Source of the DNA: Planctomycetia bacterium
GTDB taxonomy: Bacteria; Planctomycetota; Planctomycetia; Pirellulales; UBA1268
Assembly (NCBI GenBank): GCA_046092145.1
Contig: JBJTDB010000374.1
Location: 15,762 to 79,761 of the forward strand
Length of the DNA stretch: 64,000 nt
Direction: 5' to 3'
Notes under the pieces: model-generated
Seen by the model: only the letters and a program-made list of their open reading frames with translations
What the model was told of the DNA's origin: nothing
Databases searched by the model: none
In this document: piece by piece, positions 3,782 through 62,858 of the stretch
Position numbering within the stretch: position 1 is the stretch's first letter
Layout: every line of letters starts with the position of its first letter
Program-made: the position numbers and the translations under genes

Positions 3782-4908
3782 ACCTTCGACGCTTTTTCGA
3801 TGAGTTCGTGGGCGAGGGTGGCGGCCTCGGGGTGATCGGTGTCGGCAAGGAGGGACGTGAGCAGCCGCTCCGCGAGTCCGCCGCGTCGATAGCGGCGGGC
3901 AATCTGCGTGGCATCGAGCCGGTCGTGGATGTCGCTTTCGACGCTCACGCATGGAAATCCGGACCGAATGCGCTCGATGGACGCCTCCAACTCAGATCTC
4001 TCCGCACCCGAAAGCCGGCCGGTGAGCTGCAGGTCGAGAATCGTGGATCCAGCATCGAGGGCTCGGCAATCGCGCACCAAGCCAGCAACGTCGTCACTTC
4101 CGAGCAATTCCCTCTCGATTCGCACAAATCGCATACGTCCCGGGGTAAGCCGTTCGTACCGCGAGACCCGGCTCCCCTCGCACTCGATCCACCAGGCCGA
4201 CCCGGGATGACGGCAGCGGAGCGAGTCGGGCGTGTGGGTGCCGGCCATGAAGATGGTCGATGCCCCGCCCGCTTCGACGGTCGGAAAAGGCACATGAATG
4301 TGGCCGAGCAGCCAGGTCGCCACGCCGGCCGAATCGAGGGCTGACCGATCCATGCTGAAATACTGATCGGCGGCATCGAGCCCCAAGCCGGGAACGTTGC
4401 CATGGGCAACGCCGATCCGAAGGCCATGGTCATGATTTCGGGTCGCTTCAGCCACCCAGCCGATCATCGGCTCGCGGCCGGTTTTCGACGGGCACGGGCA
4501 TGGGAAAAAATGCACCGGCTGACCGTTGATGTCGTAGGTCTTCACCTCGGGCGACGCGAGCAGATCGATGTTCGCCGCGCTCTCCGTCTCCCGGCGAAAT
4601 CGCTTCCAGAGTTCCGACTCCGGGCCGGCGTGATGATCATGGTTGCCAGGCACGACAATCACCGCGGTGCCGCCGAATCCCCGCAGCAGTGCCGCCGTCC
4701 GTTCGATGTCGAGCGCCTTCACCCGAGGCGAGTCGAAAAGGTCGCCCGCGATCACGAGGAAATCGGCATCACGCTCGTTGGCGATGTCCACGATCCGGCC
4801 GAGTGCCTCGAAGCGCTCCTCGGCGAGTCGCGTGCCGACCTCGGGCGGATACTGCTTGAACGGCAGGCCGATGTGGTTGTCGGCCGTGTGGAGAATACGA
4901 ATCGGCAT
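3778..4908 (-). CDS. SbcD/Mre11/YhaO-like metallophosphoesterase
   Basis: Calcineurin-like motifs ILHTADNHIG, IAGDLFD, VVPGNHD and GHIH. Start set at ATG 4908 (MPIRILH). Confidence 0.85.
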   Translation of the reverse strand: MPIRILHTADNHIGLPFKQYPPEVGTRLAEERFEALGRIVDIANERDADFLVIAGDLFDSPRVKALDIERTAALLRGFGGTAVIVVPGNHDHHAGPESELWKRFRRETESAANIDLLASPEVKTYDINGQPVHFFPCPCPSKTGREPMIGWVAEATRNHDHGLRIGVAHGNVPGLGLDAADQYFSMDRSALDSAGVATWLLGHIHVPFPTVEAGGASTIFMAGTHTPDSLRCRHPGSAWWIECEGSRVSRYERLTPGRMRFVRIERELLGSDDVAGLVRDCRALDAGSTILDLQLTGRLSGAERSELEASIERIRSGFPCVSVESDIHDRLDATQIARRYRRGGLAERLLTSLLADTDHPEAATLAHELIEKASKV

Positions 4909-5247
4909 GGAAGGCCATTCCTCGAAACCGGCACCCGCCGGCAAACCCGTAGTCTATGAAGAACGGCCGACCGTGCTCCCCGCGACGGAAAAGACCGCCG
5001 GATCGCACCTGCGAGGCACCCGTCCCGCGGAACTGTCCCGTCGTCCACTCCGCCGCACGCGGCCGGCGGAACTTTTTCACCTCGCCCGCAAAATGCCGTT
5101 GCTTTGCCGGCACCTCTCGCTGCGGCGACCACGACGTCCTGCTTGCCCGGCGCCCTCACCGCCCCCTACCGTTTCCGGCCCACGGGATGGCCGGCCCGCG
5201 TCGGGCCCCGCCTGTTTCTCCCCCGGGGCTCTCGAGAGGTTCCCACG

Positions 5248-5643
5248 ATGATCGGCAAGAAGACCCTGCTGCAATGTTTCGTTGGAACGCTCACCTGCGT
5301 GGCCGTGATCGCGTCTGGCTGGGATGCCGAAGCCGCGGGCAGACGGCATTGCAGGAGGGCGTGTTGCTGCACCCCCTGCTGCGCACCGGTGTGCGATCCC
5401 TGCTGCACGACGGCCTGCGCGCCGGCGTGTGATCCCTGCTGCCAGACGACCTGCACGACCTGCTATCGCAGCGTCGATGCCTGCTGCTGCACCGACCGCT
5501 GCGGCTGGACGGTCGTGAGCAGCCCGGTGATCGTGTCGTCTCCCTGCTGCGCCGCCGACACGAAGGCGGCATCGAGCACGGAGGCAGTCGCGGTGAAGCC
5601 TGCCGCAAAGGCCACGACCGTCTTGGCCACCTCGGCCCGCTGA
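5248..5643 (+). CDS. small secreted cysteine-rich protein
   Basis: Signal-peptide-like N-terminus MIGKKTLLQCFVGTLTCVAVIASG. About 21 Cys follow within ~60 residues as CC/CCC clusters (ACCCTPCCAPVCDPCCTTACAPACDPCC), then an A/T/S-rich tail. GC3-biased frame. Confidence 0.6.
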   Translation: MIGKKTLLQCFVGTLTCVAVIASGWDAEAAGRRHCRRACCCTPCCAPVCDPCCTTACAPACDPCCQTTCTTCYRSVDACCCTDRCGWTVVSSPVIVSSPCCAADTKAASSTEAVAVKPAAKATTVLATSAR

Positions 5644-5830
5644 CCCGTCGCCCGCGATCCGTCCTCTGGCATGAAGTCCAGGGCAACGCTCCCACTCCCG
5701 CGCGGAGGCCCCGCCCTCCGCGCGGGAGTTTTGTTCTTCCGAGGCTCGGAAACCACCTGCGGGCCAGGCCTGGAGGACCGGGTACGCACCAGCGGCCGGA
5801 GGTCATGACGGCGAGGCTTGCGTGGAGCGA

Positions 5831-5963
5831 GGGGCTGCCCGTGCCCCGGGAGCTGGCGTATGCAGGCAAGCGAAGCAAGGATTGCGGAGCGCAGTCTGCA
5901 TCCGAGTGAGCGGAGGGCACGATGCCCTCCGCGAACGTCCGGCAAAGGGGCACGGGCAGCCCC
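5831..5963 (+). repeat. family A structured repeat, copy A1 (133 bp)
   Basis: The termini ggggctgcccgtgcccc and ggggcacgggcagcccc are perfect inverse complements. Inner hairpins are atgcag/ctgcat and cggagggca/tgccctccg, and the conserved blocks ggagcgcag and gcgaacgtccggc are present. The element ends 8 nt from the HDAC stop codon. Confidence 0.8.
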
Positions 5964-5970
5964 GAGCCCG

Positions 5971-6906
5971 CTACACGCGACCGCTCGGCATCCTGCCGGC
6001 CAGCCCTTGGGCCGCCTGCGCCGCCAGCAGCATCGTGGCGGCGTGGATATCGACGATCGACTCGATATCGGTGCAATACCCGCCCCCGCAGACGATGGCG
6101 ATCGGGGCACCTGCCGTGCTCGCGGCATCGAGCACGAGCCGGTCGCGGTCAAGAAGCCCCCGCTTCGTGAGCCGAAGCCGCCCGAGCCGGTCGCCCTCGT
6201 AGGGATCGGCGCCGGCGATGAAGAGCACGAGATCGGGCCGCGACCGTGAAAACGATTCCTGCACCGCGGCCTCCAGCCGCTCCAGGTATTCCGCGTCGCC
6301 CGTGCCATCCTCGAGCCCGACATCGAGCGACCCTGGATGCTTCCGCAGCGGAAAATTCTTCGCACCGTGGATCGACATCGTGAAGACCGTCTCGTCGTCG
6401 GCGAAGATCTCGGCCGTGCCGTTGCCCTGGTGGACGTCGCAATCGAGCACCAGCACCCGCCGGACCGCGCCCCGCGCCTGCATCTCGCGGGCCGCGACGG
6501 CCACGTCGTTGAACACACAGTAGCCCTCGCCGAAGTCGCGGCCCGCATGATGCGTGCCGCCTGCCAGGCTCGCCGCCGCGCCATCCTGCAGGGCGGCCGC
6601 CGCGGCATCGACCGCGGCGCCCGTGCTGCGAAGCGAACGCTCCACGAGCTCGGGGCTCCAGGGGAATCCGATCCGGCGGACTTCCGCCGGCGACAGCGCG
6701 CCTGCCATCACCCGGCCGACATACTCGCGGCAGTGAACCCGCAGCAGTTCGTCGGCCGTGGCCGCGTGCGGCTCGATGAACTCGAGCGGCGCGCCCTCGG
6801 CGGCATGCCGCTCGAGCCGCTGCCGGAGGCGGGAATATTTTTCGATCGGAAACCGGTGGCCCTCCGGGAGCGGAAGGTGGAACCGGTCGCACGGAAAGAG
6901 CCGCAT
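5971..6906 (-). CDS. histone deacetylase-family (HDAC/AcuC-like) deacetylase
   Basis: Class I/II HDAC motifs GGTHHAGRDFGEGYCVFND, LDCDVHQGNGT and GADPYEGD. Start at ATG 6906 (MRLFPCDRF). Confidence 0.85.
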   Translation of the reverse strand: MRLFPCDRFHLPLPEGHRFPIEKYSRLRQRLERHAAEGAPLEFIEPHAATADELLRVHCREYVGRVMAGALSPAEVRRIGFPWSPELVERSLRSTGAAVDAAAAALQDGAAASLAGGTHHAGRDFGEGYCVFNDVAVAAREMQARGAVRRVLVLDCDVHQGNGTAEIFADDETVFTMSIHGAKNFPLRKHPGSLDVGLEDGTGDAEYLERLEAAVQESFSRSRPDLVLFIAGADPYEGDRLGRLRLTKRGLLDRDRLVLDAASTAGAPIAIVCGGGYCTDIESIVDIHAATMLLAAQAAQGLAGRMPSGRV

Positions 6907-7061
6907 GGCGGAAAGTGTAGCCCTCCGGGGCCACCGGAGCAGACGCGGCCCCCCTCGGATTGCCCTTGCACACACCGATGCAAGAGGCGACTCTCACGGT
7001 GAACGGCCGCCTCCGCCGCCGCCCGATCCACTGCGACCCGAGAAACGGGAGCATCGACCGC

Positions 7062-8855
7062 ATGACCCTCGACTGGCTTCTTCAGCACTGGCAGCCCTTG
7101 CTGACGGCCATCGTGTCGATCGTCACGATCGTGCTGCTGCTTGTCGGCCAGCGGGCACCCGACATGGTCATGATGGGGGCGGTGATCGTCCTCCTCGCCG
7201 CCGGCGTGCTCACGCCCGACGAGGCGCTGCGGGGCATGAGCAACGAGGGGATGATCACGGTCGCCGCGCTCTTCGTGGTGGCCTCCGCGGTGGAGCGGAC
7301 CGGCGCCCTGGCGACGATCGTCGATCGCGTGCTCGGCCAGCCGCGATCGCTGGCCAGCGCCCAGCTCCGCACCATGATCGGCCCCGGCGCCACCTCCGCC
7401 TTCATGAACAACACGCCTGTCGTCGCGCTCATGGTGCCGGCGATCCGCGACTGGGCCCGCAAGCACAGGCTCTCGGTGTCGAAGCTGCTGATGCCAATGA
7501 ACTGCGCCGTGGTTCTCGGCGGGCTGTGCACGCTCATCGGCACGAGTACGAACGTCGTCGTCAGCGGCCTCGTGTCCGGGAAGACAGGACGGCCGCTGGG
7601 GATGTTCGAGATCACGTGGCTCGGGGTCCCGATCTTTCTCGTCGGCATGGCCTACCTCCTGCTGGCCAGCAAGCTACTGCTCAAGGACCGGCGGCCGGCG
7701 ATGAGCGCCAGCGACGATCCCCGGGAGTATTCGCTCGAGATGCTGGTCGAATCGGGCAGCCCGCTCGTCGGCAGGACGATCGAAGAAGCGGGCCTGCGCG
7801 GTCTCCACGGTCTTTATCTGATGGAAATCGACCGAGACGGCCACGTGATGGCCGCCGTCGCACCGACCGAACGGCTCGAGGCGAGCGACCGGCTCGTCTT
7901 CGTCGGCGTGGTCGATTCCGTGCTGGAGCTTCAGAAGATCCGCGGCCTTCGGCCGGCGACCGACCAGGTGTTCAAGCTCGACGATCCGCGGAGCGAGCGG
8001 GTGCTCGTGGAGGCGGTCGTATCGAGCAGCTGCCCCCTGGTGGGAGGCACGATCCGCGAGGGACGCTTCCGCTCGACCTACGGCGCCGTGGTGATCGCGG
8101 TGGCCCGCGATGGCGAGCGGCTGCAGATGAAGATCGGCGACATCGTCCTCGAGCCGGGCGACACGCTGCTCCTGGAGGCCAGCCCGGCATTCGTCGAACG
8201 GCAGCGGTCGAGCCGCCACTTCTACCTCGTCAGCCAGGTCGATGGCTTCGCCCCGCCACGGCACGATCAGGCGTGGATCGCACTGACGGTGCTGGCGGGC
8301 ATGGTGCTCGCGGCCACGCTCGAACTGGCGCCGATGGTGGCGGCGGCCCTGGTCGCCGCCGGCATCGTGCTGGTGACCCGGTGCGTCTCGTCGACCGACG
8401 CCCGCCGCTCCATCGAATGGGAGTCGCTCCTGCTGATCGCCGCCAGTTTCGGCCTGGCCAAGGCGATGGAGAAGACGGGCCTCGACGAGATCGTCGCCCA
8501 GTCGGCCATCGGCGCCGCCGGCGACAGCCCCCACCTCGTGCTCGCCGCGGTCTATGTAGTCACGATGCTGGCGACCGAGCTGATGAGCAACAACGCCGCC
8601 GCCGTGCTGATGTTCCCGATCGGCTGGCAGGCCGCGGCCGACATGGGGGTGAACCCGATACCCTTCGTGATGGCCGTCACGATCGCCGCCAGCTGCGGGT
8701 TCGCCACGCCGATGGGCTATCAGACCAACCTCATGATCTACGGCCCGGGTGGCTACAAGTTCTCCGACTATGTCCGCTTCGGCGGGCCGCTCAACCTGAT
8801 CGTGATGGCCCTCACCGTGATCCTGGCCCCATTCATCTGGCCCTTCGGCCGGTGA
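7062..8855 (+). CDS. SLC13/DASS-family anion permease with two central TrkA-C domains
   Basis: Polytopic hydrophobic protein. The central soluble repeats (EMLVESGSPLVGRTIEEAGLR..., VEAVVSSSCPLVGGTIREGRFR...) are typical of TrkA_C. Start at ATG 7062. Confidence 0.8.
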   Translation: MTLDWLLQHWQPLLTAIVSIVTIVLLLVGQRAPDMVMMGAVIVLLAAGVLTPDEALRGMSNEGMITVAALFVVASAVERTGALATIVDRVLGQPRSLASAQLRTMIGPGATSAFMNNTPVVALMVPAIRDWARKHRLSVSKLLMPMNCAVVLGGLCTLIGTSTNVVVSGLVSGKTGRPLGMFEITWLGVPIFLVGMAYLLLASKLLLKDRRPAMSASDDPREYSLEMLVESGSPLVGRTIEEAGLRGLHGLYLMEIDRDGHVMAAVAPTERLEASDRLVFVGVVDSVLELQKIRGLRPATDQVFKLDDPRSERVLVEAVVSSSCPLVGGTIREGRFRSTYGAVVIAVARDGERLQMKIGDIVLEPGDTLLLEASPAFVERQRSSRHFYLVSQVDGFAPPRHDQAWIALTVLAGMVLAATLELAPMVAAALVAAGIVLVTRCVSSTDARRSIEWESLLLIAASFGLAKAMEKTGLDEIVAQSAIGAAGDSPHLVLAAVYVVTMLATELMSNNAAAVLMFPIGWQAAADMGVNPIPFVMAVTIAASCGFATPMGYQTNLMIYGPGGYKFSDYVRFGGPLNLIVMALTVILAPFIWPFGR

Positions 8856-9012
8856 TCCTCGCCCGCGCGACGCTCCACGCGGGCCGGTCGTGCCGGTCGC
8901 ACCGACCGCCGAGGCGTCATCATCGGCACGACCGACGCCGGCCGCCCTCCGTTTCGGGGAAAACCCCCGTGGAAACTTTCCAACGAGGGATGGCGAACGT
9001 ACCCTCAACGGC

Positions 9013-10371
9013 ATGAGCGACATCCTGTTCCACTATTACCGCGTCAACCCGACGACGTGGTTCTATCTCTCGTCGCTGCTCTCGATCGCGGTCTTCTTCA
9101 AGTTCAACCGCGTGCTGAGCATGCGGAACCTCGACCTTGTCGGCCTCATCCTGCTCGCCCCCGGGCTGCTGGCGGTGGAATACGGCGGCTTCAAGGCGAG
9201 CACCGCCGCCCAGCAACTCGGCTTCGTCTGGATCTTCGCCGTCTCGGGGCTCTTCCTGATGAGGATGCTCTTCGATTCGCTCATGGTCCGCCGTCCGATG
9301 CTCGAGCCGAATCTTTCCGTCGGCGGCCTGACGTTCCTCGGCTTGTCGCTCTTGGTCTTCCTGCTGGCCAACGTGATCACCACCCGCCCGCAGCGCGACG
9401 ACCTCGCCGCCGCGGCCGCGGCCACGAAGCTGGGGGCGGGCGAGGGGCATGTCGATGCCGACCAGCTCGCACGCCTCGGCCCCGGCTATCCGCTCCTCTT
9501 CCTGCTCCCCCAGATCTCGACGCAGCGGATCTTCACCCCCGAGACTGCGACCGCCGGCCAAGAGACCACGGCCAGAAGCCGCCGCGCCGTCCATGAGACG
9601 ACGGCCCGCATCATGGCCATCGTCTCGCAGGTGGCGATCGTGAGCGGCATGGTGCTCATCGGCTGGTGGCACTTCGACAACATACTGCTGGGCATCGCCG
9701 CGGCGGTGCTCTACCTGCTCCTCCCCTACACCGCGATCATGACCGGCCGCGTCGATCATGTGCTGCCCGGCGCCCTGATCACCTGGGCCGTCGTTGCCTA
9801 TCGTCGCCCCTTCACCGCCGGCTGTCTCATCGGCCTGGCGATCGGCACGATCTACTATCCTGTCTTCCTGCTCCCGCTGTGGTGCGCGTTCTATTGGGAG
9901 CGGGGCATCCGCCGGTTCGGATTGGGCGTGGTGACGGCGCTCGCCGTGCTCGTGCTCGGGCTGTGGATCACGTCTCCCGATGGCGGAGTCTTCCTCGATC
10001 AGCTGCGGCAGATGTTCGGCTGGATCTTCCCCAACGACGTGTCGCTCGAGGGCTTTTGGGCCCTGCCCGGCAACGACGCCGTCTTCCGGCTCCCCGTGCT
10101 CGCCGCGTTCATCGCCATGATCGCGACGCTGGCGATCTGGCCGTCGCCCAAGAATCTCGGCACGCTCATGAGCTGCACCGCCGCGGTGCTCCTGGGCAGC
10201 CAGTTCTGGACGGCCCACAACGGCGGCCTCTTCATGGCCTGGTTCCTGCCGATGCTGCTCCTGGTGATCTTCCGGCCGAACCTCGAGAATCGAGTCGCGC
10301 TCCTGGTGCTCGACGCCGATTGGTTCTCCCGCCGCCGCCGCGTGGCCGAGCCCACCGATCAGGCGGCGTGA
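9013..10371 (+). CDS. polytopic membrane protein, unknown function
   Basis: 452-aa ORF with at least 10 hydrophobic segments and a GC3-biased frame. No catalytic motif recognised. Confidence 0.6.
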   Translation: MSDILFHYYRVNPTTWFYLSSLLSIAVFFKFNRVLSMRNLDLVGLILLAPGLLAVEYGGFKASTAAQQLGFVWIFAVSGLFLMRMLFDSLMVRRPMLEPNLSVGGLTFLGLSLLVFLLANVITTRPQRDDLAAAAAATKLGAGEGHVDADQLARLGPGYPLLFLLPQISTQRIFTPETATAGQETTARSRRAVHETTARIMAIVSQVAIVSGMVLIGWWHFDNILLGIAAAVLYLLLPYTAIMTGRVDHVLPGALITWAVVAYRRPFTAGCLIGLAIGTIYYPVFLLPLWCAFYWERGIRRFGLGVVTALAVLVLGLWITSPDGGVFLDQLRQMFGWIFPNDVSLEGFWALPGNDAVFRLPVLAAFIAMIATLAIWPSPKNLGTLMSCTAAVLLGSQFWTAHNGGLFMAWFLPMLLLVIFRPNLENRVALLVLDADWFSRRRRVAEPTDQAA

Positions 10372-11284: not shown

Positions 11285-12295
11285 TCACAAGCCGCGGCCT
11301 GCGTCATGCAGAATCCCGGCATATGCCGAAAAGAGCCGGAAGACCAGGAGCACGACGAGCCCGGCGACGGCCACCCAGACCGCCGCCCCCGCGGCGCTGG
11401 CGGCCGCTGCAAACCCACGGGCCGCAGCCTCGTCGTATGCCTCCGCCAGCCGGTCGAGCGCCTCCGCGGTCTTCCCGGTCAGTTCGCCCACGCCGACGGC
11501 CTCGAGAAGCGGTCGTGGAAAGAGCCGCGTCTCGCGGAGCATCTCCGCAAGCGAGAGGCCGTCGCGAAGCCGCGCCGCCGCGGCCCCCGGATCGATCGCC
11601 AGTCCCGGCGCGACGGCCGATGCAATCCTGAGCAGCTGACGGATGTCGAGCCCGATGCCACTGGCCAACGATGCCGCCCGGCACCATGCGGCCCGCTCGG
11701 CATCGGCGGCCGCGCGACCGATCATGGGAATGCGTGCAAGGGCATGCCGCACGATGCCGCGATGCCGCCAGCTCCGCAACGCCGCCACGACCAACGCCCA
11801 GCCGCATGCCACCACGCCGGCCACGATGACGAGAAACGTCATGGCGCCTCCCTGGCCCGTGAGCCCGATCCCGAGCATGTCGAACGAACTGCCGGCCACG
11901 AAAATCAGGAGCGTGACGACGCCCACGGCGACAAGGGCCTTCACGGCCGGCCCGACGAGCGACCTCCTGAGCTCGGCGGCGTTTCTGGCCGACCGTCTGC
12001 ATTGCGCGGCAAGGTCGCGGCAGACATCGGGCTCACGGCCCGCCATCTCCCCGGCGGCGAGCATCCCGCGGACAACGGGCGAGAACGTCGCGCCGACCGC
12101 ATCGACCGACTCGGCCAAGGTCGTGCCGGCGGCGAGCGAACGGGCCACCTGCTCGATCGCGGGCTTCCAGCGTGCGGGGGCCCGCGCGGCCTCTCCCGCC
12201 CACGCCCGCCGCATGTCGATGCCGGCCGACGTGGCAATGGCGAGGCGGCCGAGCAGGTCGGCGACCGTGGCATCCGGCATTCGTCTCCAACGCAT
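11285..12295 (-). CDS. type II secretion/type IV pilus platform protein F-family (GspF/PilC-like)
   Basis: Two GspF-like repeats (GTTLAESVD...SPVVRGMLAAGEMAG and GLSLAEMLRETRLFPRPLLEAVGVGELTGK) alternate with TM segments. The start is taken at MRWRRMPD (12295); 12280 is an alternative. The upstream part of the 670-aa ORF is antisense to tyrA and was discarded. Confidence 0.7.
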   Translation of the reverse strand: MRWRRMPDATVADLLGRLAIATSAGIDMRRAWAGEAARAPARWKPAIEQVARSLAAGTTLAESVDAVGATFSPVVRGMLAAGEMAGREPDVCRDLAAQCRRSARNAAELRRSLVGPAVKALVAVGVVTLLIFVAGSSFDMLGIGLTGQGGAMTFLVIVAGVVACGWALVVAALRSWRHRGIVRHALARIPMIGRAAADAERAAWCRAASLASGIGLDIRQLLRIASAVAPGLAIDPGAAAARLRDGLSLAEMLRETRLFPRPLLEAVGVGELTGKTAEALDRLAEAYDEAAARGFAAAASAAGAAVWVAVAGLVVLLVFRLFSAYAGILHDAGRGL

Positions 12296-18230: not shown

Positions 18231-19394
18231 ATGCAGAAGCATCATCCGACCGGCCGTTCACAACGCCCGAAGGCCCTGACCGTCTTCGCGGCCGCGTTCA
18301 TCGCCGGCGCCGCCGCGGCCGTGGGGATCAACCGAGCGCTCGACGTCCACATGGCGCAGGCGAAGACGCAGGTCGAATGCGAGCCGATCTTCGTCGCGAT
18401 TCGGCCGCTGCCACAGGGATCGCCCGTCACCATCTGGGATGTCGCGCTCCGCGACTGGCCCAAGGCGATGCTGCCGACCACGGCGCTACGGGCCGAAGAC
18501 CGGTTCGAGGGAATGATCCTCAAGCATCCGTTGCGGGAAGGCCAGCCGCTGTTGTCGGTGCAACTCGTGAAGGCTGAGCAGCCGCCTGCGGCAGGGCTCG
18601 CCGCGCAGGTCGGAGAGAGGTATGTGCCGGCCGCGATCCAGCCGCCGACGCGGCCCGACGCCGACCTCTGGACGCCGACCGCCACGCCCGGGGCCCCACC
18701 GGCGCCGCTGGCCGTGGCCGATGCCGTCGCCGCACCGACCGAGCAGATGGCGACATCACCCGTCGCCGCGCCAGCTGCCGCCATTCCGGCCGCCGAGCCG
18801 GCTTCGATCGCGACGCCTGACATCACGACCGACATCGCCGACGCCGCGCAGCCCCTGGAGACAGGCGTGACCGAGGCGACGGTGTCGGATCAGACTGATG
18901 CGGCGACGGCCGAACCGGCGGAGGTGACGGCGACGATTCCTCGGGCGGTGACGACCGAAAGCGATGCCACTGCCGACACGATACCGCCAACGACGCCGCC
19001 CCAGGCCGCCTCCCCCAAGCGATACCTGGTCGTGCCGGAGCGGATCGCGTCGCTCGCCGATGCCTCGTTCACGACGCCCGCTCCCAAAGAGCAGACCCCC
19101 GATGCCACGCCGCAGCAGCAGCCATCCCAGCCACGCGGCGGCACCGCCTCTGCCAAGAAGCCGAAATCGGTGCCCCCGGTCATGCAGGCGCCGACGAACC
19201 GGACGCGGGCCCAGGCGAGCCCGCCGCCGAAGCCCCAGGGCATGTTCGGCGGCATGTTCCCTCCGCCCCGGCTCGGCGCCCAGCCCGGCCCCACCAGCGA
19301 CGGCTCATCCGGGCAGTCGCGTCAGCCCCAGCCGGCGAAAAAGCCATCGCCCCGCACCGCGCTCTGGCCATGGTCGGCAGGCGGCTCGAAATAG
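18231..19394 (+). CDS. SAF-domain (CpaB/FlgA-like) protein with long P/A/T-rich tail
   Basis: An N-terminal TM segment (ALTVFAAAFIAGAAAAVGI) is followed by a SAF-like segment IFVAIRPLPQGSPVTIWDVALRDWP...LREGQPLL. About 270 aa of low-complexity P/A/T/Q sequence follow. Confidence 0.6.
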   Translation: MQKHHPTGRSQRPKALTVFAAAFIAGAAAAVGINRALDVHMAQAKTQVECEPIFVAIRPLPQGSPVTIWDVALRDWPKAMLPTTALRAEDRFEGMILKHPLREGQPLLSVQLVKAEQPPAAGLAAQVGERYVPAAIQPPTRPDADLWTPTATPGAPPAPLAVADAVAAPTEQMATSPVAAPAAAIPAAEPASIATPDITTDIADAAQPLETGVTEATVSDQTDAATAEPAEVTATIPRAVTTESDATADTIPPTTPPQAASPKRYLVVPERIASLADASFTTPAPKEQTPDATPQQQPSQPRGGTASAKKPKSVPPVMQAPTNRTRAQASPPPKPQGMFGGMFPPPRLGAQPGPTSDGSSGQSRQPQPAKKPSPRTALWPWSAGGSK

Positions 19395-21346: not shown

Positions 21347-22936
21347 TTGTACGACTCGCTGCTGGACGAACTCGAGGATGACGTTGTCTCCAACCCGCAG
21401 GAAGTTGAGGAACTGACCGAGAAGGTGGTCGATGCCGAGGAGGGCGATGTCGAACTCCTTGCCGACGAAACCGAGACGGTCGTGGTTCCGGAAGGCGAAC
21501 TCGAAGCCGAGGCCGAACTCGAAGCCAATGGTGACGGCGAGGAAGTGCTCGCCGAGCAGGTCGAGAACTGGTCCGACGACCCGGTCCGGATGTACCTCAC
21601 GCAGATGGGCGAGATCCCACTGCTCACACGCGCCCAGGAAATTTTCCTCGCCCGCCAGATCGAGACGACGCGAGCCCAGTTCCGTGCGAAGCTGCTGCAG
21701 TGCGAGTATGTCTGCCAGCAGGCCTTCAAGGTGCTCTCCCGGGTTCACCGTGGTGAGCTGCCGTTCGACCGCACCGTGCAGGTGTCGGTGACCGACCGGC
21801 TGGAGAAGGATCAGATCCTCGGCCGCCTCCCGCACAACCTGCGGACGCTCGAGGTGCTCCTTAAGCAGAACAAGGCCGACTATCGAATCGCGCTGTCCAA
21901 GAAGCGAAAGATGGCGGAGCGGCGCGAGGCATGGGCGCGGCTCGGCCGCCGCCGCCGCCGGTGCGTGCGGCTCATCGAAGAGCTCGGCCTCCGCACGCAG
22001 CGGATCGAGGCGATGATCCCCACGCTCGAAAGCTTCGTCGCCCGTCTTCGCGAGTTGAAGCACAAGATCGACGCCCACAAGCGGTCGAAGCAGCCGCCGT
22101 CCGGTCGGGCTCAGCTGGTCGATGAATACCGGGCCATCCTCAAGGCCTGCCAAGAGACGCCCCGCAGCCTGAAGCGGCGGATCGACGAGATCCGCGTCAT
22201 CTTCGCGAAGTATCAAAAGGCGAAGCGGGGGCTCTCCGAGGGCAACCTTCGGCTCGTGGTCTCGATCGCCAAGAAGTACCGCAATCGCGGCCTCTCCTTC
22301 CTCGATCTGATTCAGGAGGGCAATGCCGGCCTGATGCGGGCCGTGGACAAGTTCGAATACCGCCGCGGCTTCAAGTTCTGCACGTATGCCACCTGGTGGA
22401 TCCGACAGGCGATCACCCGCGCGGTGGCCGATCAGAGCCGCACGATCCGCATCCCGGTGCACATGGTGGAGACGATGTCGCGGGTGAGGAACGTCGCCCG
22501 CACGCTGCTCCAGGAATACGGCCGCGAGCCGACGATCGAGGAGATCGCCGCCCGGGCCGGCACGCCGGTGGACGAGACGCGACGGGTCACGGCGATGAGC
22601 CGCTACCCGATCAGCCTCGACCGCCCGGTGGGCAACAGTGAAGACAGCCACTTCGGCGACCTGCTCCCCGACACCGGCGCCGAGAACCCGGCCGTGGGTG
22701 CGGCCCAGGAGATGCTCCGGAACCGGATCGCGAAGGTGCTCAAGAGCCTTTCCTACCGCGAGCGCGAGATCATCAAGCTCCGCTACGGCCTCGGCGACGG
22801 CTACAGCTACACGCTCGAGGAAGTGGGGCACATCTTCAAGGTGACCCGCGAGCGGATCCGCCAGATCGAGGCGAAGGCCGTGCGAAAGCTCCAGGCCCCG
22901 GCCCGCAGCGAAGAGCTCAGCGGGTTCCTGGACTGA
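21347..22936 (+). CDS. rpoD: RNA polymerase primary sigma factor
   Basis: Regions 1.2-4.2 are recognisable ([63 protein letters not shown]). The start is TTG at 21347, 7 nt after GAAGGAG. An in-frame TAG at 21323 excludes any upstream start, and there is no ATG before conserved region 1.2. Confidence 0.95.
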
Positions 22937-22942
22937 CTATAC

Positions 22943-23047
22943 GCCCGACGGGCCATCCATGGCCCCGTCGGGCTTGGCATCGGGCGAGCCTGCTCGCCCG
23001 ATGCGGCGGTCGCACCTCCGGGCGACCGTGGCCGCCTCGCGGCGGCG
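22943..23047 (+). repeat. family B multi-hairpin repeat, copy B1
   Basis: Four consecutive hairpins start 7 nt after the rpoD stop: cccgacggg..cccgtcggg around ccatccatgg, catcgggcgag-cctg-ctcgcccgatg, ggtcgc-acctccgg-gcgacc, and gccgcc-tcgc-ggcggc. Confidence 0.7.
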
Positions 23048-23110
23048 AAGATCGACACGGATCTACTTGAACATTGCGTGGACGCTGTGCATATGAACAA
23101 GGTCTAGGAA

Positions 23111-23243
23111 TGGGTTGCCCATGCCCCGGGAGCCGGCGTAGGTGGCCAGCGCAGCCCGGAGGGCGAGAGCGCAGCCACCTCCGAGAGAGCGGAGGGCAGG
23201 GATGCCCGCAGCGAACGTCCGGCGACGGGGCGTGGACAACCCC
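23111..23243 (+). repeat. family A structured repeat, copy A2 (133 bp)
   Basis: The termini gggttgcccatgccccg and cggggcgtggacaaccc pair with one T-G and one C-A mispair. Inner hairpins are aggtggc/gccacct and gggca/tgccc, and the conserved gagcgcag and gcgaacgtccggc blocks are present. Confidence 0.75.
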
Positions 23244-23303
23244 GGACCCGCGAAACGAGTTTTTATCAAGTGTGTGCCGTCTGAAACCACAAAGGAACTT
23301 CTC

Positions 23304-25496: not shown

Positions 25497-25600
25497 GCAG
25501 GAACCTCCTCGTGGCGAATGTCCCGAATATACCAATGGCGGGCCAGTGCAATTTCCCGCGGGTACACTCCGAAGAGAAGCCCCGCCCCTGGCTCGAGCCG

Positions 25601-27589
25601 ATGTCCCTGCACCTGCCACACGACCGTTCGCCGCGCCCTCCCCTTCCGGCCACCCGTGAGGAAATGCTCGCCCGCGGCTGGAACGAGGTCGATGTCGTCT
25701 TCGTCAGTGGGGATGCCTACGTCGATCACCCGAGCTTCGCCAACGGCCTCCTCGCCAGGCTCCTGGAGGCTGCCGGCTTCCGCGTGGCCGTGCTCGCCCA
25801 GCCCGACTGGCATTCCTGCGAGCCATGGCGACAGTTCGGCCGGCCGCGGCTCTTCTTCGGCGTGTCGGCCGGCAACATGGACTCGATGATCAACCACTAC
25901 ACCGCCAACCGGAAGGTGCGGAACGACGACGCCTATTCCCCCAACGGCGAGATCGGCCGACGGCCCGACCGCGCCACGCTCGCCTACTGCCAGCGTTCGC
26001 GGGAGGCGTTTGCGGGCGTGCCCGTCGTCGCCGGCGGCGTCGAGGCGAGTCTCCGGCGACTGGCCCACTACGACTACTGGAGCGATACCGTCCGCCGCTC
26101 GATCCTGATGGATTCGAAGGCCGATCTGGTCGTCTTCGGCATGGGCGAGCGGACGATCCTTGAAATCGCCCGCGGCCTCGCGGCGGGCAAGACGATCAAG
26201 GATCTCCGCGATCTGCGGGGCGTCGCCTACCGGCTCGGCGCGAGCGAGCCGCCACCGACCGGCCCGGGGGGCGACGCGGCCGACACGGTGGAACTGCCCG
26301 ACTACGAATCCGTGTCGCACGACACCCTCGCCTTCTGCGACATGACGCGGATCGCGCATCTGGAGACGAATCCCCACAACGCCAGGCGGCTCGTCCAGCG
26401 GCACGGCCGCGAATCGATCGTCGTGAATCCCCCCGCCCTGCCCCTCGAGCAGGACGAGATGGACGAGGTCTACGGTCTGCCATTCACGCGGCGTCCGCAT
26501 CCCTCCTACGGCACGGCCCGCATTCCCGCCTTCGAGGTCGTGGAAACGAGCGTGCAGATCATGCGGGGCTGCTTCGGCGGCTGCACCTTCTGCTCGATCA
26601 CGGCCCACGAGGGGCGGATCATCCAGAGCCGCAGCCAGGATTCGATCATCACCGAAATCAAACTTCTGGCGGGCCAGCCAGGATTCAAGGGCACGGTGTC
26701 GGACATCGGCGGCCCGACGGCCAACATGTATCAGATGCGGTGCACGCGGCCGGATGTGGAGGCCAAATGCCGCCGGCTCTCCTGCGTGCATCCGACCGTC
26801 TGCAAGCTGCTGGGCACCGATCACGGGCCGCTCAAGAGCCTGATGCGAGAGGCCCGAAGTGTGGAGGGCGTGAAGCGGGTGCTCGTCGCCAGCGGGGTGC
26901 GCATGGATCTGGCCCGCCGCGATCCGGAGTATCTCCAGGAACTCGCCGAGCACCATGTCGGTGGTCATCTCAAGGTCGCACCCGAGCACACCGATCCCGA
27001 GGTCTTGAACCTGATGAAAAAGCCGTCAGCCGACGACTATGTCGAGTTCGACAAGGCCTTCAAGGCGGCCAGCCGCCGCGTCGGCAAGAAGCAGTTCACG
27101 GTCCCCTATTTCATCGCCAGCCACCCCGGAAGCGGTGTTGAGGAGATGATCGATCTGGCCCTCTTCCTCAAGCGCAACAGCTACAAGCCCGACCAGGTGC
27201 AGGACTTCATCCCGAGCCCCTTCGACATCGCCGCCTGCATGTATTACACGGGCCTCGACCCGATGACGAAGCAGCCGGTGAAGGTGACCAAGGGCCTGAA
27301 GGATCGGCGGATGCAGCGGGCCCTGCTCCAGTTCTTCAAGCCGGAAAACTATTTCGAGGTCCGACGGGCGCTCGAGCAGGCGGGTCGCCACGACTTGATC
27401 GGCAGCGGCTGCGATTGCCTGATCCCCGACCGTCCGCCGAAGGAGGCGCTCGACAAAAAGCGCCGCGAAGCCACGCAGGCCTTCACGGAAGAGACGTCGG
27501 GCGACCACATCCGCGGCAAGCCCGGCAGCCGCAAGCAACGCCGCCCCCGCACATCGATCGGCTACCGGCCAAGACGTCCCGGCACGTGA
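25601..27589 (+). CDS. ygiQ: YgiQ-family radical SAM protein (UPF0313)
   Basis: N-terminus [16 protein letters not shown], radical-SAM cluster motif [12 protein letters not shown], and a basic C-terminal tail. Start at ATG 25601. Confidence 0.88.
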
Positions 27590-27627
27590 TCACCGCGTAT
27601 CACGGAATCCTTCCCAGAAAACCGCGA

Positions 27628-27758
27628 GGGGTTGCCCGTGCCATGGAGCCGGCGTTGCGGGCAAGTGAAGCCATGGATGGCGAGAACGCAGCCAGCATCG
27701 AGTGTGCGAAGGCCTGGTAGGGCGAAGCAAACGTCCGGCGAATGGCACGGGCAACCCC
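27628..27758 (+). repeat. family A structured repeat, copy A3 (131 bp)
   Basis: The termini ggggttgcccgtgccat and atggcacgggcaacccc are perfect inverse complements. The core is about 85 percent identical to copy A4. The element lies between the convergent ygiQ and GNAT genes. Confidence 0.8.
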
Positions 27759-27787
27759 GAGCCACTCCATCGACTCCGAACCGCGGC

Positions 27788-28906
27788 CTACCGGTCGTAG
27801 ATCCGATACTTCTTCGTCACGAGCGCCCCGCCGCGTTCGAGCGTCCGCTTCGAGAGGTGGTTGCTTTCGAGCACCCAGGAAAACTCCACCTCGTCCATGC
27901 CCCAGTCATAGAGCCGCGGCACGAGCGCGGCGTGCAGCACGAGCCCGACACCCCATGATTGATACTCGGGGATCACATTGGTGCTGATCGCCCGCATCCG
28001 CTTGATCGCCCGCTTGTTCCAGAGCAGCTTCAGGAACCCGAAGGGAAAGAGCCGGCCGTTGATCGCCTTGATCCTCGGGTTGTAGTCGAGGAGGCAGAAG
28101 ACCGTGCCGATCGGCTTGCCTTCCGCCTCGGCGACAAGCGCGAGCTCCGGCACGATCAGGTGCTTCATGCTCGCGGCCATGTGGTTCACCTCGCCCGGCG
28201 TGAGCGGCACGAAGCCCCATGTGCCGCCGAGGCTCGAGTTGTAGATGTCGAGGAACATCCGCACTTCCTCGTCGAACCGCTTCCGGTCGAGCGGTCGCAC
28301 CGTCACGCCGAAGCGTTCCTTCACCCCCTCCACCATTACGCCAAGTTTCTTGTCGATCGTTTCGAGCATCGACAAGCGGCCCCAGAAGGCGTAGAGGTCT
28401 TCGGCCTTGTGGAAGCCGTTGGCCTCGACGAGGCCGGCGTAGTAGGGCTTGTTGTGCGTCATCATGAAGAAGGGGGGTGTGTCGAAGCCCTCCGTCAGCA
28501 GGCCGCATTCGTAGTTGAGCGAAGGATTCGTCGGGCCGCGCACGCTCGTCATGCCCTGGCCGGCCAGCCAGTCGGAGGCCGCGCCGAAGAGGGCCCGGGC
28601 CGCGGCGGGGTCGTCGTCGCACTCGAAAAACCCGAAGAAGCCCCTCTGCTCCCCGTGCCGTTCGATGTGTCCGGCGTTGACGATCGCGGTGATCCGGCCG
28701 ACGTCGGTGCCGCCACGGGTGGCGAGGAACGACCGGCTTCGCGACTTCTCATAGAAGGGATGCGGGCGGAAGCCGAGAAGCTCTTCCTGGGCCATCACGA
28801 GGGGTGGCATCCAGCAGGGGTCGTCTCGGTAGATCCGCCAGGGGAGCCGGACGAACCGCTTCTGCTCCGACCGGCTCTCCACCGGCCTTACCGCAAGATC
28901 CGCCAC
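27788..28906 (-). CDS. GNAT-like N-acetyltransferase family protein
   Basis: About 370-aa family pattern RFVRLPWRIYRDDPCWMPPL...GFFGFFEC. GTG 28906 lies 8 nt after GGAGGA; TTG 28921 is an alternative start. Confidence 0.65.
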   Translation of the reverse strand: MADLAVRPVESRSEQKRFVRLPWRIYRDDPCWMPPLVMAQEELLGFRPHPFYEKSRSRSFLATRGGTDVGRITAIVNAGHIERHGEQRGFFGFFECDDDPAAARALFGAASDWLAGQGMTSVRGPTNPSLNYECGLLTEGFDTPPFFMMTHNKPYYAGLVEANGFHKAEDLYAFWGRLSMLETIDKKLGVMVEGVKERFGVTVRPLDRKRFDEEVRMFLDIYNSSLGGTWGFVPLTPGEVNHMAASMKHLIVPELALVAEAEGKPIGTVFCLLDYNPRIKAINGRLFPFGFLKLLWNKRAIKRMRAISTNVIPEYQSWGVGLVLHAALVPRLYDWGMDEVEFSWVLESNHLSKRTLERGGALVTKKYRIYDR

Positions 28907-29141
28907 GCCAGCATCCTCCAAACTGTCTTAACTCGAAGATTTTCAGGACTTTCCGGCACGACCGCGAGCATCTTCGGGGGTGATCGGCTCGTTCGTCAAA
29001 TCCGGTGCCCCCCTCCCTCGTGAAAGTCGCCCCGCCTTTCCAGCCGAATTAGAATCGGTCCGGGTTCACGACGACGGATCGACCAGCCCGGCCATGTGGA
29101 ACGGCCCAAGGAGCGATCCGATCGTGGAAGCATCCATTCGC

Positions 29142-31753: not shown

Positions 31754-31924
31754 CTCACGGTTATATCAAGTCGGAAGATCGTCGCAGCATCGCGGACATC
31801 ATGCCCTGGCACGGTTCGTCCGACACCCTGCCCAACCATGGGCTGCCATGCTGGAGGCAATGGATCCCTTCCGACCGGAGGTCGGCAAGGAAACCGAGGC
31901 CATGGATGGCGAGGTTCCGTAAAC

Positions 31925-42573: not shown

Positions 42574-44384
42574 GCACGAAAAAACAATTGCAAACTGAGT
42601 ATGGGGTGAGCGGGGTTGCCCCTGCCGCTGAGCCGGCGTTGCTGGCCAGCGGAGCCATGGATAGCGGAGCGCAGCCAGCATCGAGCGAGCGAAGGCCAGG
42701 ATGGCCGCAGCGAACGTCCGGCGACGCGGCAGGGGCAACCCCGCGCGCGGCTCCAGCCAAGGTGGCCCTTGCCTTGATCCTGACTGCGCTGCCGCTTACG
42801 GCAAGCGCGAGCGACTGGAATCAGTGGGGCGGCTCGCCAGTCCGCAACAACGTGTCGCCGGCAAAGAATATTCCAGCCGAGTGGGCGCCCGGCGACTTCG
42901 ACGCCACCACCGGCGAGTGGAAGTCCAAGACGAGCACGAATGTCGCCTGGGTGGCCTCGCTCGGCAGCCAGTCCTACGGCAACCCTGTCGTCGCCGGCGG
43001 CAAGGCGTTCGTCGGCACCAATAACGGCAAGGGGTGGCTCAAGCGATATCCCCCTGAGGTCGATCTCGGCTGTCTTCTGGCGTTCGACATCAAGGATGGC
43101 TCGTTCCTCTGGCAGGACTCGAGCGAGAAGCTCCCCACGGGCCGCGTGCATGATTGGCCGCTGCAAGGGATCTGCTGTGCGCCGCTCGTGGAGGGAGACC
43201 GGCTCTGGTATGTGACCAGCCGCGGCGAGGTGAAGTGCCTCGACACCGAGGGTTTTCGAGACGGCGAGAACGACGGCCCCTTCACGACGGAAAAGGTGCA
43301 GGAGAAGGACGAGGCCGACGTCGTGTGGGTGCTCGACATGATGAAGCAGCTCGGTGTCTCGCAGCACAACATGTGCTCCTGCAGCGTGACGAGCGCGGGC
43401 GACTTCCTCTTCGTGAACACGAGCAATGGCGTGGACGAGGGGCACATCAATCTCCCCAATTTCGAGGCGCCGAGTTTCCTCTGCATCGACAAGCGCGACG
43501 GCAAGGTGCTCTGGGCCGACAACACGCCCGGGGCCAACGTGCTCCATGGCCAGTGGTCGAGCCCGGCCTATGCCGACATCGGGGGCGTGCCGCAGGTGAT
43601 CTTCGGCGGCGGCGACGGCTGGCTCTATGCGTTCGACGCCCGCGGTGAGAACGGCCGCTCGAAGAAGATCTGGGAGTTCGACTGTAATCCCAAGGAGTCG
43701 AAATACACGCTCGGCGGCCGGGCCGATCGCAACCACATCATCGGCACGCCGGTCGTATACGAGGGGCTCGTCTACATCGCGGTGGGCGAGGATCCGGAGC
43801 ACGGCGAGGGGGTGGGGCATCTTTGGTGCATCGATCCCACGAAGCTGGGCGATGTCTCGAGCGAGCTGGCCGTGAGCCTCAAGGACCCGACCACTCCCCT
43901 GCCCCGCCGCCGCGAGCAGGCGGTGATCAAGGAGCAGGGCGAGGTGGCCCGCCCGAATCCGAAGTCGGCTGCCGTCTGGCACTATCCCGGCTTCGATACC
44001 GACACGAATGGCAAGCTCGACTTCGAGGAGACGATGCACCGCACCTGCGGCACCGTAGCCATTCACGACGGCCTGCTCTTCGTGGCCGATTTCAGCGGTC
44101 TCTTCCACTGCCTCGACCTGAAGACGGGCAAGCCGCATTGGACCCACGACATGCTCGCCGCGAGCTGGGGCTCGCCGCTCATCGTGGATGGGAAGGTCTA
44201 CATCGGCGATGAAGATGGCGATATCACCGTCTTCCGGCTCTCCAAAGAGAAGGAGATCCTCTCCGAGATCAACATGGCCAACAGCGTCTATTCGACGCCG
44301 ATCGTCGGCGGCGACACGCTGTACATCGCCAACAAGAGCCACCTCTTCGCGATCCGCGAAGCCGCCACTCCCGTCACGAAGTGA
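42570..44384 (+). CDS. secreted PQQ-like beta-propeller protein (start uncertain because of repeat A4)
   Basis: The mature part starts ASA|SDWNQWGG, followed by propeller blades. ATG 42570 is ATGA-coupled to the upstream gene but then reads through repeat A4. GTG 42762 (KVALALILTALPLTASA) is the alternative start. Confidence 0.75.
   Translation: MSTKKQLQTEYGVSGVAPAAEPALLASGAMDSGAQPASSERRPGWPQRTSGDAAGATPRAAPAKVALALILTALPLTASASDWNQWGGSPVRNNVSPAKNIPAEWAPGDFDATTGEWKSKTSTNVAWVASLGSQSYGNPVVAGGKAFVGTNNGKGWLKRYPPEVDLGCLLAFDIKDGSFLWQDSSEKLPTGRVHDWPLQGICCAPLVEGDRLWYVTSRGEVKCLDTEGFRDGENDGPFTTEKVQEKDEADVVWVLDMMKQLGVSQHNMCSCSVTSAGDFLFVNTSNGVDEGHINLPNFEAPSFLCIDKRDGKVLWADNTPGANVLHGQWSSPAYADIGGVPQVIFGGGDGWLYAFDARGENGRSKKIWEFDCNPKESKYTLGGRADRNHIIGTPVVYEGLVYIAVGEDPEHGEGVGHLWCIDPTKLGDVSSELAVSLKDPTTPLPRRREQAVIKEQGEVARPNPKSAAVWHYPGFDTDTNGKLDFEETMHRTCGTVAIHDGLLFVADFSGLFHCLDLKTGKPHWTHDMLAASWGSPLIVDGKVYIGDEDGDITVFRLSKEKEILSEINMANSVYSTPIVGGDTLYIANKSHLFAIREAATPVTK
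42612..42742 (+). repeat. family A structured repeat, copy A4 (131 bp), inside the annotated 5' end of an ORF
   Basis: The termini ggggttgcccctgccgc and gcggcaggggcaacccc are perfect inverse complements. Inner hairpins are gctggc/gccagc and ggcca/tggcc, and the conserved ggagcgcag and gcgaacgtccggc blocks are present. Confidence 0.8.
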
Positions 44385-62550: not shown

Positions 62551-62618
62551 GGAGGCTCGCCTCTGGCGAGCCGACCGTAAGATGCGACAGGCCCAAAGGG
62601 CTGACGCAGCGCGAAAAC

Positions 62619-62708: not shown

Positions 62709-62858
62709 AAAAGCCCCGGGTGGAAACCCGGGGATAATCCGGCACCAAGCCCGTGTGGTCTTCAGCATTGATCCCCCGGTTGCCACCGGGGGCTTGCCTG
62801 AGCGCGGTCACCACCGCCGCACATCCTGGCGACCGTGGCCGCCGCTAGAATCTCACCC

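Follow-up and report, generated by a model that had tools for sequence, protein, structure and literature searches.

Repetitive extragenic palindromes (REPs) of E. coli and Pseudomonas, together with their bacterial interspersed mosaic elements (BIMEs), REP doublets (REPINs) and REP-associated tyrosine transposases (RAYTs, or TnpA-REP), are described systems close to the repeat reported here. The latter, hereafter designated family A, is present in four copies (A1-A4) in a 64-kb (64,000 nt) stretch of contig JBJTDB010000374.1 from a Planctomycetia bacterium (hereafter the window). Family A is like the REP, BIME and REPIN systems in being high in copy number, extragenic and near gene 3' ends, in that the fold matters more than the sequence of the stems, in having co-existing subfamilies and turnover between genomes, in the dominance of head-to-head pairs without tail-to-tail ones and the heterodimers with a spacer motif, and in lacking target duplications and, at most copies, an adjacent transposase. 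Indeed, the classical REP families show the same dimer statistics, with the head-to-head pattern (PMC3733652). A REP unit is, however, a single hairpin of 20-40 nt, that is, a short imperfect palindrome, whereas the family A unit is branched and about 140 nt long; the foot of REPs is an unpaired GT[AG]G, whereas that of family A is GYGA; and, unlike in REPs, the fold of family A is markedly strand-asymmetric and no RAYT was found near any sampled copy.

Structured interspersed intergenic repeats are, as a kind, well known. The enterobacterial repetitive intergenic consensus (ERIC) sequences of Enterobacteriaceae, the Correia elements (Neisseria miniature insertion sequences, NEMIS) of Neisseria and bcr1 of the Bacillus cereus group are structured intergenic repeats of 100-160 nt that are conserved across species, with compensatory changes for some and possible effects on mRNA stability. 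They share with family A the size, the long terminal complementarity and the transcribed intergenic placement in both orientations but have no sequence relationship to it; Correia and bcr1 have target duplications and behave as MITEs (miniature transposable elements with inverted repeats), whereas family A has no such duplication, and family A differs from all three in its three-way-junction core, twin identical loops and REP-style head-to-head heterodimers. A further relevant group, the class 3 Y1 HUH proteins, is reported mainly from Planctomycetes and Acidobacteria, and 24 sequences of it were described in 2018 (Quentin et al., PMC6006769). High-copy 'atypical secondary structures' with a CnGA foot flank the genes, an arrangement that the authors considered REPtron-like; these structures are like family A in host phylum, in high copy number and in a foot ending in GA. 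Family A itself is absent from Rfam and from the literature searched, and what is new in it is the unusually large, branched and strand-asymmetric unit and the exceptionally clean covariation support. We describe it here as a new intergenic repeat, about 140 nt long and high in copy number, of uncultured freshwater Planctomycetes. It is most likely a lineage-specific, interspersed, REPIN-like element that spreads as REPs do and is not a classical RNA gene, and its unusually large unit adopts a branched, Y-shaped fold.

The window contains exactly four copies of family A, all on the + strand and all intergenic, with a mean column identity of 87% in the alignment; a fifth copy was not found in the 64 kb with nhmmer and the covariance model (CM). 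Each copy folds far better than its dinucleotide shuffles, with z-scores of -6 to -8.8.

A1: 5831-5964, + strand, CM score 129.9 bits, fold z-score -8.8, foot GCGA at 5827-5830 and tail GAGCC at 5964-5968
A2: 23111-23244, + strand, CM score 116.7 bits
A3: 27628-27759, + strand, CM score 119.4 bits, foot GCGA at 27624-27627 and tail GAGCC at 27759-27763
A4: 42612-42743, + strand, CM score 128.8 bits

An earlier annotation made from the letters of the window (hereafter the sequence-only reading) had placed four same-orientation copies at these positions, and both the positions and the orientation were confirmed. It had also put one copy inside the 5' region of a gene, which proved to be wrong. 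The open reading frames (ORFs) that overlap A2 and A4 are over-extensions, because there is no coding signature over the element: the codon-position GC is flat across it (0.68/0.68/0.67) versus 0.61/0.47/0.84 downstream, and the gene call in a relative (L121) was also used. The true starts, ATG 23304 and GTG 42762, both open signal peptides.

Beyond the window, a scan of one genome per GTDB species, in which two internal sequence blocks served as the pattern and the stems were left free, gave at least 120 loci. Real family A copies are held by at least 108 of them, with 152 nhmmer hits in at least 72 species-level assemblies. The hosts are nearly all uncultured freshwater planctomycete metagenome-assembled genomes (MAGs) from lakes Mendota, Pavin and Tanganyika, Swiss lakes and others, deposited under the labels Pirellulales, Planctomycetia, Planctomycetaceae or 'Candidatus Kuenenia', and the orthologues that they have in common are 70-93% identical. 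Twelve loci matching the scan pattern without an nhmmer match, mostly from other phyla, were chance matches, and neither these nor seven pattern matches on viral contigs were real by the CM. No match to family A was found in a plasmid collection searched with blastn, nor was any found for the conserved blocks in a literature search. Likewise, no Rfam family matches the element, as a check with Rfam 15 gave no gathering-score hit on the window copies, and at a cut-off of E<=1 the element remained without a hit in eight loci that carry it. In sequence that had not been selected for the element (the window and four syntenic relatives), the density is about 1 copy per 17 kb, which corresponds to a few hundred copies per genome.

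The fold was obtained from an alignment of 134 distinct copies by RNAalifold and manual refinement. It comprises a closing stem of about 18 bp (P1), P2 (GCCGG/CCGGC), a 2-bp P2b, and two arms, of which arm 1 is built from P3, P4 and P5, and arm 2 from P6 and P7 separated by a 3x3 G·A/A·G internal loop. Both arms are capped by the same loop, C-A(U)GGAU-G, in which the GGA is invariant or nearly so, the P7 loop being GGA-type in the consensus. The 'closing stem enclosing two hairpins' of the sequence-only reading thus holds for the stem and the two arms but misses the finer division into P1, P2, P2b, P3-P4-P5 and P6-P7. The element ends read GGGGYUGCCC...GGGCARCCCC, and P1 extends via a tandem A·G/G·A step to two further pairs (GYGA-GGGG...CCCC-GARC), in which Y and R covary. 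Because of this extension into the flanks, the unit, 131-135 nt by itself, is about 140 nt with foot and tail, slightly longer than the 131-133 bp first given for the copies. The G at position -4 of the GYGA foot of P1 carries 1.3 bits; P2 stands on an nnGA foot, and the junction before P6 reads (C/U)CGA-GUGA. Mapped from alignment columns to coordinates, the parts of the fold in A3 are as follows.

27628-27645, + strand, 5' arm of P1, pairing with 27742-27758
27648-27654, + strand, 5' strand of P2 (GCCGG) and CG of P2b, with partners at 27735-27739 and 27699-27700, preceded by the 'GA' foot
27656-27697, + strand, arm 1, with P3 at 27656-27662/27691-27697, P4 at 27665-27666/27686-27687 and P5 (GCC-AUGGAU-GGC) at 27670-27681
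27701-27728, + strand, junction AGUGU (consensus AGUGA) and arm 2, with P6 at 27706-27708/27726-27728 and P7 at 27710-27715/27719-27724
27729-27741, + strand, 3' block G(C)AAACGUCCGGCGA (consensus GCGAACGUCCGGCGA), consisting of a junction, the 3' strand of P2 and GA

The most conserved block, GAGCCGGCGU, is formed by the GA foot, the 5' strand of P2 and P2b (the region of 27648-27654 in A3). The 3' block is also kept in a variant subfamily whose 5' block differs, so that it was not selected by the search pattern.

All 18 pairs of P1 covary across the 134 copies. In the window, the 17-nt arms of the closing stem are perfectly complementary in A1, A3 and A4 and yet differ between the copies, and the two inner hairpins co-vary between copies, both as had been claimed; in A2, the T·G and C·A mispairs reported earlier are present together with a terminal T·C that had been missed. 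Within the arms, the P3 pair 32-79 is UA in 77 copies and AU in 42, the P5 pair 48-58 is CG in 86 and GC in 47, and the arm 2 pair 99-108 is CG in 82, GC in 35 and AU in 10, while the pair 92-113 is formed by G·A in 93 copies, with Watson-Crick pairs in another 40. Over the whole alignment, 90.8% of the cells are paired, versus 77.7% in shuffled alignments and 30-40% when the partners were slid, and compensatory double changes occur at 41 of the 47 base pairs. The covariation score of 0.341, versus about 0.05 for slid partners, was reached by none of 500 shuffles; the shuffle control ignores the relatedness of the copies, whereas the slid-partner control keeps it. Moreover, comparison of nearest-neighbour copies (median identity, 89%) gave 234 fully compensated double changes, more than disruptive ones, and paired columns had 11.4 substitutions each versus 7.0 in unpaired columns. 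Therefore, the stem sequences drift, while the pairing, junctions and loops are held. These results strongly support the view that selection preserves the family A fold, which the sequence-only reading had proposed from the window copies and which now draws on about 130 further copies from other species.

This selection acts on one strand. G·U outnumbers A·C by 253 to 40 overall and by 173 to 17 in P1, and among the recent changes, that is, those between nearest neighbours, 189 are between Watson-Crick and G·U pairs versus 34 between Watson-Crick and A·C. The sense strand is stabler than the antisense strand in 129 of the 134 copies with RNA parameters and in 131 with DNA parameters, the difference being about twofold greater under the former (-9.8 versus -4.5 kcal/mol). 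Furthermore, the CM gives 117-130 bits on the sense strand, and its sole reverse-strand hit on a copy scores 24 bits. These data rule out mechanical palindrome correction as the source of the complementarity, and also recognition as double-stranded DNA.

The placement of the copies is REP-like. They lie just past stop codons, at a median distance of about 60-100 nt, and are depleted between divergent genes; some stand in 5' leaders, such as A4, 19 nt before a start codon. Their orientation to the neighbouring genes is near random, with 26 antisense versus 16 sense among singletons between co-directional genes, and 41 antisense versus 26 sense for stop codons within 100 nt (p=0.09). Adjacent copies form 13 head-to-head, 2 tandem and 0 tail-to-tail pairs. 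The identity between partners is 96-98% in the tandem pairs but 54-75% in the head-to-head ones, which are heterodimers, often with a small hairpin in the spacer. The spacers of these heterodimers share a conserved hairpin, GAGCCUCCUC-N10-14-GAGGAGGCUC (L084 573-610 and 5877-5913, L023 517-554, L085 4976-5008 and L081 2565-2600), which gives the dimers the look of BIME-like mosaic units. Distant copies located on the same contig agree in orientation in 22 cases versus 8, and the sense strand is the strand of negative GC skew in 90 of 144 (90 to 54, p=0.003); the bias in gene strand shows no such relation to copy orientation (69 to 73). A recurring partner gene was not found: the largest neighbour family occurs in 7 of 108 loci, and all of the neighbour families consist of housekeeping genes or of planctomycete paralogues. 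Partner candidates were also sought among the genes that lie between copies of opposite orientation, but these were all housekeeping.

Turnover of the copies was evident from four relatives (L121-L124) that are syntenic with the window and have YgiQ proteins 86-97% identical to that of the window. The A3 site is filled in L121 and L123, and no copy was detected there in L122 and L124; at the A2 site, no copy was detected in L121, L122 and L124, the three relatives covering it. At two more sites, relatives have a copy that the window lacks, and at one of these it has decayed to a remnant of 63 nt in another genome; in the spacer between IGPS and AICARFT, the copy is complete in L122 and a remnant of 63 nt in L123. 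In the window, the same spacer holds a solitary hairpin.

31899-31910, + strand, solitary GCC-AUGGAU-GGC hairpin, one of 4 matches in the window versus 0 expected

At all six sites of the syntenic region, the copy has the same orientation (+). In the closest relative, L121, the A3 site (about 12010-12238) has a truncated main-type copy, without P3-P5 and the 3' arm of P1, and immediately after it a complete copy from the variant subfamily, an arrangement that points to nested insertion or recombination between copies.

Family A thus combines a strand-specific covarying fold with REP-like behaviour and turnover, and its core resembles the hairpins associated with class 3 genes. It seems to us probable, although only moderately so, that family A is a REP/BIME-like non-autonomous repeat whose single-stranded sense-strand fold is the substrate of an HUH enzyme of the RayT/class 3 type acting in trans. 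We favour this reading because it accounts jointly for the strand-specific selection, the indifference to gene orientation, the REP-style dimers and the turnover. Selection keeps the fold of one strand, with the GYGA foot, P1 of about 18 bp, P2 on its GA foot and the two C-A(U)GGAU-G arms, and the single-stranded form would be the substrate of a probably dimeric HUH Y1 nuclease or transposase (RayT/'class 3') encoded elsewhere in the genome. Copies would presumably be gained and lost via single-stranded DNA (ssDNA) intermediates linked to replication, each new copy inheriting the fold whatever its orientation to the local genes and then decaying, and the stable hairpins may secondarily affect mRNA 3' ends. 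The palindrome-associated transposable elements (PATEs) derived from IS200/IS605 insertion sequences (ISs) are like family A in having strand-specific hairpins (subterminal and recognised as ssDNA in their case), no target duplication and an orientation tied to replication, and two similar hairpins could seat a dimeric TnpA in PATEs as in family A. In contrast to family A, however, the ends of IS200/IS605 are not mutual inverted repeats and have no closing stem, and no tnpA or tnpB partner was seen with family A.

As to the enzyme, 17 genuine class 3 genes were recovered from metagenomes by back-translating the published motifs. One subgroup led to 3,840 database relatives, of which the organism-named hits are all Gemmataceae and are called RayT by the Joint Genome Institute (JGI), and the class 3-like family amounts to 3,426 clusters at 50% identity, far above the 24 sequences of 2018, with some members fused into proteins of 500-1,500 aa. 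On either side of four Gemmataceae class 3 genes (L137 and L150-L152) stand hairpins of the form ACGA-GCCGGAAGCGU.AGCGACGGGC...GCCCGUCGCUGACGCUUCCGGC-UCGU; the genes lie within arrays of nested hairpins whose stems reach 61 bp. The class 3 loci, which come from other lineages than the family A hosts, contain no copy of family A. When the family A CM was run without filters, all of its best hits in the class 3 loci L150-L152 fell on the flanking hairpins (31.6 bits, E ~6e-5 in 25 kb), which align in order to the GAGCCGG, AGCGAAGGCC and ACGUCCGGC blocks of family A. The aligned blocks (GAGCCGG, AGCGAnGGnC and ACG..UCCGGC) are the most conserved ones of family A, and the hairpins have GA-GCCGG..CGU / ACG..CCGGC and AGCGAnGGnC in the same order. 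Unlike family A, they are long near-perfect palindromes in nested arrays, without a second arm or an outer P1. From this ordered alignment of blocks, family A looks like a class 3-type hairpin to which a second arm and an outer closing stem were added.

Several observations weigh against assigning family A to an HUH enzyme. No HUH, RayT or class 3 gene was found in about 1 Mb of family-A-bearing sequence with about 150 copies: neither the motif HxH...Y..NP nor a tblastn hit to RayT or IS200 TnpA occurs in about 0.97 Mb, and scans of the family-A contigs for the class 3 motifs NHVH...YV[VI]xEQ and tblastn with class 3 queries were negative as well; a weak HUH hit in L031, antisense inside a real gene and without the HUH histidines, was discarded as spurious. 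Support from the similarity to the hairpins of Gemmataceae is modest, since it concerns one repeat family and reflects in part a generic hairpin score, both strands scoring alike. The foot, GYGA or nnGA, has only its ...GA in common with the published CnGA and differs from the GT[AG]G of REPs, and the feet of the class 3 hairpins examined read ACGA or CCGA. The folding strand is in most cases the C-rich one, which is the leading-strand template under conventional skew, whereas targeting of the lagging-strand template as in IS200/IS605-type elements (IS608) predicts the opposite bias, and the observed one fits no model cleanly. Neither a clean empty site nor a target duplication could be made out at three sites in relatives whose flanking proteins are 86-97% identical, as the spacers are already unalignable. 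Finally, the preference for G·U over A·C does not distinguish between RNA and ssDNA, and conserved junctions, twin GGA loops and tandem G·A pairs are just as typical of an RNA that binds protein.

The last points lead to the rival explanation that survives best, namely that family A is a functional structured RNA, a protein-binding module embedded in or processed from untranslated regions, selected copy by copy at the RNA level and amplified by some unspecified route, with a dimeric RNA-binding protein, for example CsrA, recognising the identical C-A(U)GGAU-G loops of its two arms. We regard this as possible but rather unlikely. The very strong covariation with conserved unpaired junctions and loops, the tolerance of G·U and avoidance of A·C, the tandem G·A motifs and the about twofold larger gap in stability with RNA parameters would all suit an RNA, as would the recurrence of the hairpin module alone and in another repeat family. 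Moreover, some copies occupy the same orthologous site in different species, upstream of EF-G (L054/L119) and after the nuo operon (L012/L100). The loops resemble the CsrA-site consensus, CANGGANG, and would be putative CsrA sites. Planctomycetes are among the phyla listed as having CsrA plus FliW (PMC4682653). RNAs of the CsrB/RsmZ type likewise have GGA in short hairpin loops, C-A(N)GGA(N)-G, of which each family A element has two. They are, however, products of one or a few dedicated genes with a promoter, a terminator and many GGA sites, whereas family A consists of hundreds of promoter-less copies in both orientations. With the near-random, if anything antisense, orientation, about half of the copies would lie on the wrong strand for read-through transcription; no conserved promoter motif was found in the 40 nt upstream of the copies, and a scan revealed no promoter-like or terminator-like site coinciding with A2 or A3. 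The remnants and the filled and unfilled sites between close relatives indicate that the genomes can do without many of the copies, REPs typically reach hundreds of copies per genome and form head-to-head heterodimers, and no Rfam model was matched. A cis-acting mRNA module or an independent gene for a small RNA, which the sequence-only reading had entertained, is weakened by these results, whereas its mobile hairpin has gained support, in a REP/BIME-like form and not as a MITE with terminal inverted repeats. More doubtful still is a Y-shaped RNA class of about 140 nt on whose A(N)GGA(N) loops a dimeric protein (CsrA or another planctomycete factor) would sit and which, amplified to hundreds of copies in untranslated regions, would serve as a genome-wide post-transcriptional tag or sponge with the REP-like spread as its vehicle.

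Under the MITE explanation, the DDE transposase of a full-length IS elsewhere would bind the P1 arms, in double-stranded form, as terminal inverted repeats, and the inner hairpins would be incidental; this is very improbable. The size of 130-140 bp, the terminal inverted repeats of 17-19 bp, the many dispersed copies and the sites filled or unfilled between relatives would fit, and the joint change of both arms between subfamilies could in principle reflect transposase specificity. Nevertheless, there is no target-site duplication, as no variable direct repeat flanks the element and its constant flanks prolong the stem. Variation is greatest in the arms and least in the interior, with its junctions and loops, which is the reverse of a MITE; the preference for G·T over A·C among arm mismatches, about 10 to 1 (173 to 17), cannot be explained by recognition of double-stranded DNA, the internal helices covary too, and head-to-head heterodimers are not a MITE trait. 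No transposase was found near any copy, bracketed by copies or in the window, for which the absence of transposase and RAYT-like genes had already been reported and was confirmed.

Quasi-palindrome correction is an established mutational process, and the complementarity might accordingly be kept without any selection on the fold, by template switching, hairpin-templated repair or gene conversion, with the covariation reflecting subfamily history. The copies are indeed related and form subfamilies, to which the shuffle control is blind, yet this explanation is even less likely than a MITE: the slid control, which keeps relatedness, collapses the pairing from 90.8% to 30-40% and the covariation from 0.34 to about 0.05, templated correction gives perfect Watson-Crick arms and not an excess of G·U (189 to 34), and it fails for the conserved unpaired junctions and for short helices such as the 4-bp P5 (CG in 86, GC in 47). 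Least probable of all is an intrinsic terminator or a pure stabiliser of mRNA 3' ends duplicated at gene ends, as the sequence-only reading had also offered, since, for all the copies just past stop codons and the very stable GC-rich stem, P1 is followed by the tail GARCC(G) and by a U-tract on neither strand, the scan for terminators was negative at A2 and A3, some copies stand in 5' leaders (A4), and a simple hairpin needs neither two conserved inner arms nor strand-specific wobble pairs. Integron attC sites were rejected, as the ends lack the R''/R' core (RYYYAAC...GTTRRRY), the copies are 4.5-17 kb apart and head-to-head pairs occur, and hammerhead-like and other ribozymes were dropped in the absence of a match to an Rfam model.

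If family A is indeed a substrate of an HUH enzyme, it would extend the REP/REPIN-RAYT concept to Planctomycetes and to a larger, branched and strand-asymmetric substrate, and the class 3 HUH enzymes, as yet little understood, would have in it a concrete candidate partner that can be aligned; if it is instead an RNA, its fold would be among the best covariation-supported new ones in bacteria. Family A makes up about 0.8% of the host genomes, as extrapolated from the sampled density, and adjoins hundreds of gene ends in an abundant uncultured freshwater lineage, where it probably affects assembly, intergenic turnover and the structure of mRNA 3' ends. Its CM marks the host lineage in metagenomes, and the alignment is ready for submission as a new family.

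In the window, A1 lies 7-8 nt past the stop codon of an opposite-strand histone-deacetylase-family gene (5971-6975, - strand; Pfam). A2 lies downstream of a sigma-70 gene (21347-22936, + strand) and of a copy of another repeat, family B (22943-23049), and 60 nt upstream of the true start of a glyoxalase-family gene, ATG 23304. A3 is situated between two convergent genes, for a YgiQ radical-SAM protein (25511-27589, + strand) and a 377-aa protein (27788-28921, - strand). A4 is flanked by two genes for PQQ/BamB-like beta-propeller proteins; its start is 39 nt past the stop at 42573, and its end is 19 nt short of the GTG at 42762.

Family B consists of four consecutive hairpins whose stems are compensatorily different between copies, and is much rarer than family A in the sampled MAGs.

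22943-23049, + strand, family B copy
62443-62550, + strand, family B copy
62603-62710, + strand, family B copy
L121 7565-7682, family B copy in the relative

The first of these hairpins contains, on the minus strand, the GCC-AUGGAU-GGC module that also forms P5 of family A. The corresponding 12-mer, GCCATGGATGGC, occurs four times in the window versus 0 expected, and its hairpin seems to be a module common to different repeats.

31899-31910, + strand, GCCATGGATGGC alone
27670-27681, + strand, in A3
22952-22963, - strand, in family B
62452-62463, - strand, in family B

The intergenic spacers of the host lineage are packed with several unrelated hairpin repeats. A small one, CACAGGTTGAAAACCTGTG with variants, stands on one or both sides of family A copies in several genomes (L071 7063-7125 and the flanks of many other MAG copies), and L122 has, in tandem, five units of some 33 nt (ccttgtgggataggcttcagcctgccttgc) as well as palindromes (CCGCTTGCTCCGCAAGCGG) at about 18800-19100 and 12000-12230. 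In L123, an MmeI-type restriction-modification gene with RhuM, DEAD-helicase and T5orf172 genes lies between the PDZ gene and ygiQ (2741-9872), an insertion relative to the gene order of the window that looks like a defence island. The window also has a full-length cobalamin riboswitch aptamer (RF00174) at 55751-56002 on the - strand, with 65.8 bits, and, adjoining this region at about 56556-57139, tandem 33-nt coding repeats of at least 9 units that are rich in Cys codons (GCTGCGAGCCCGCTTGCGGTGCTGGCAACGGCTGC...).

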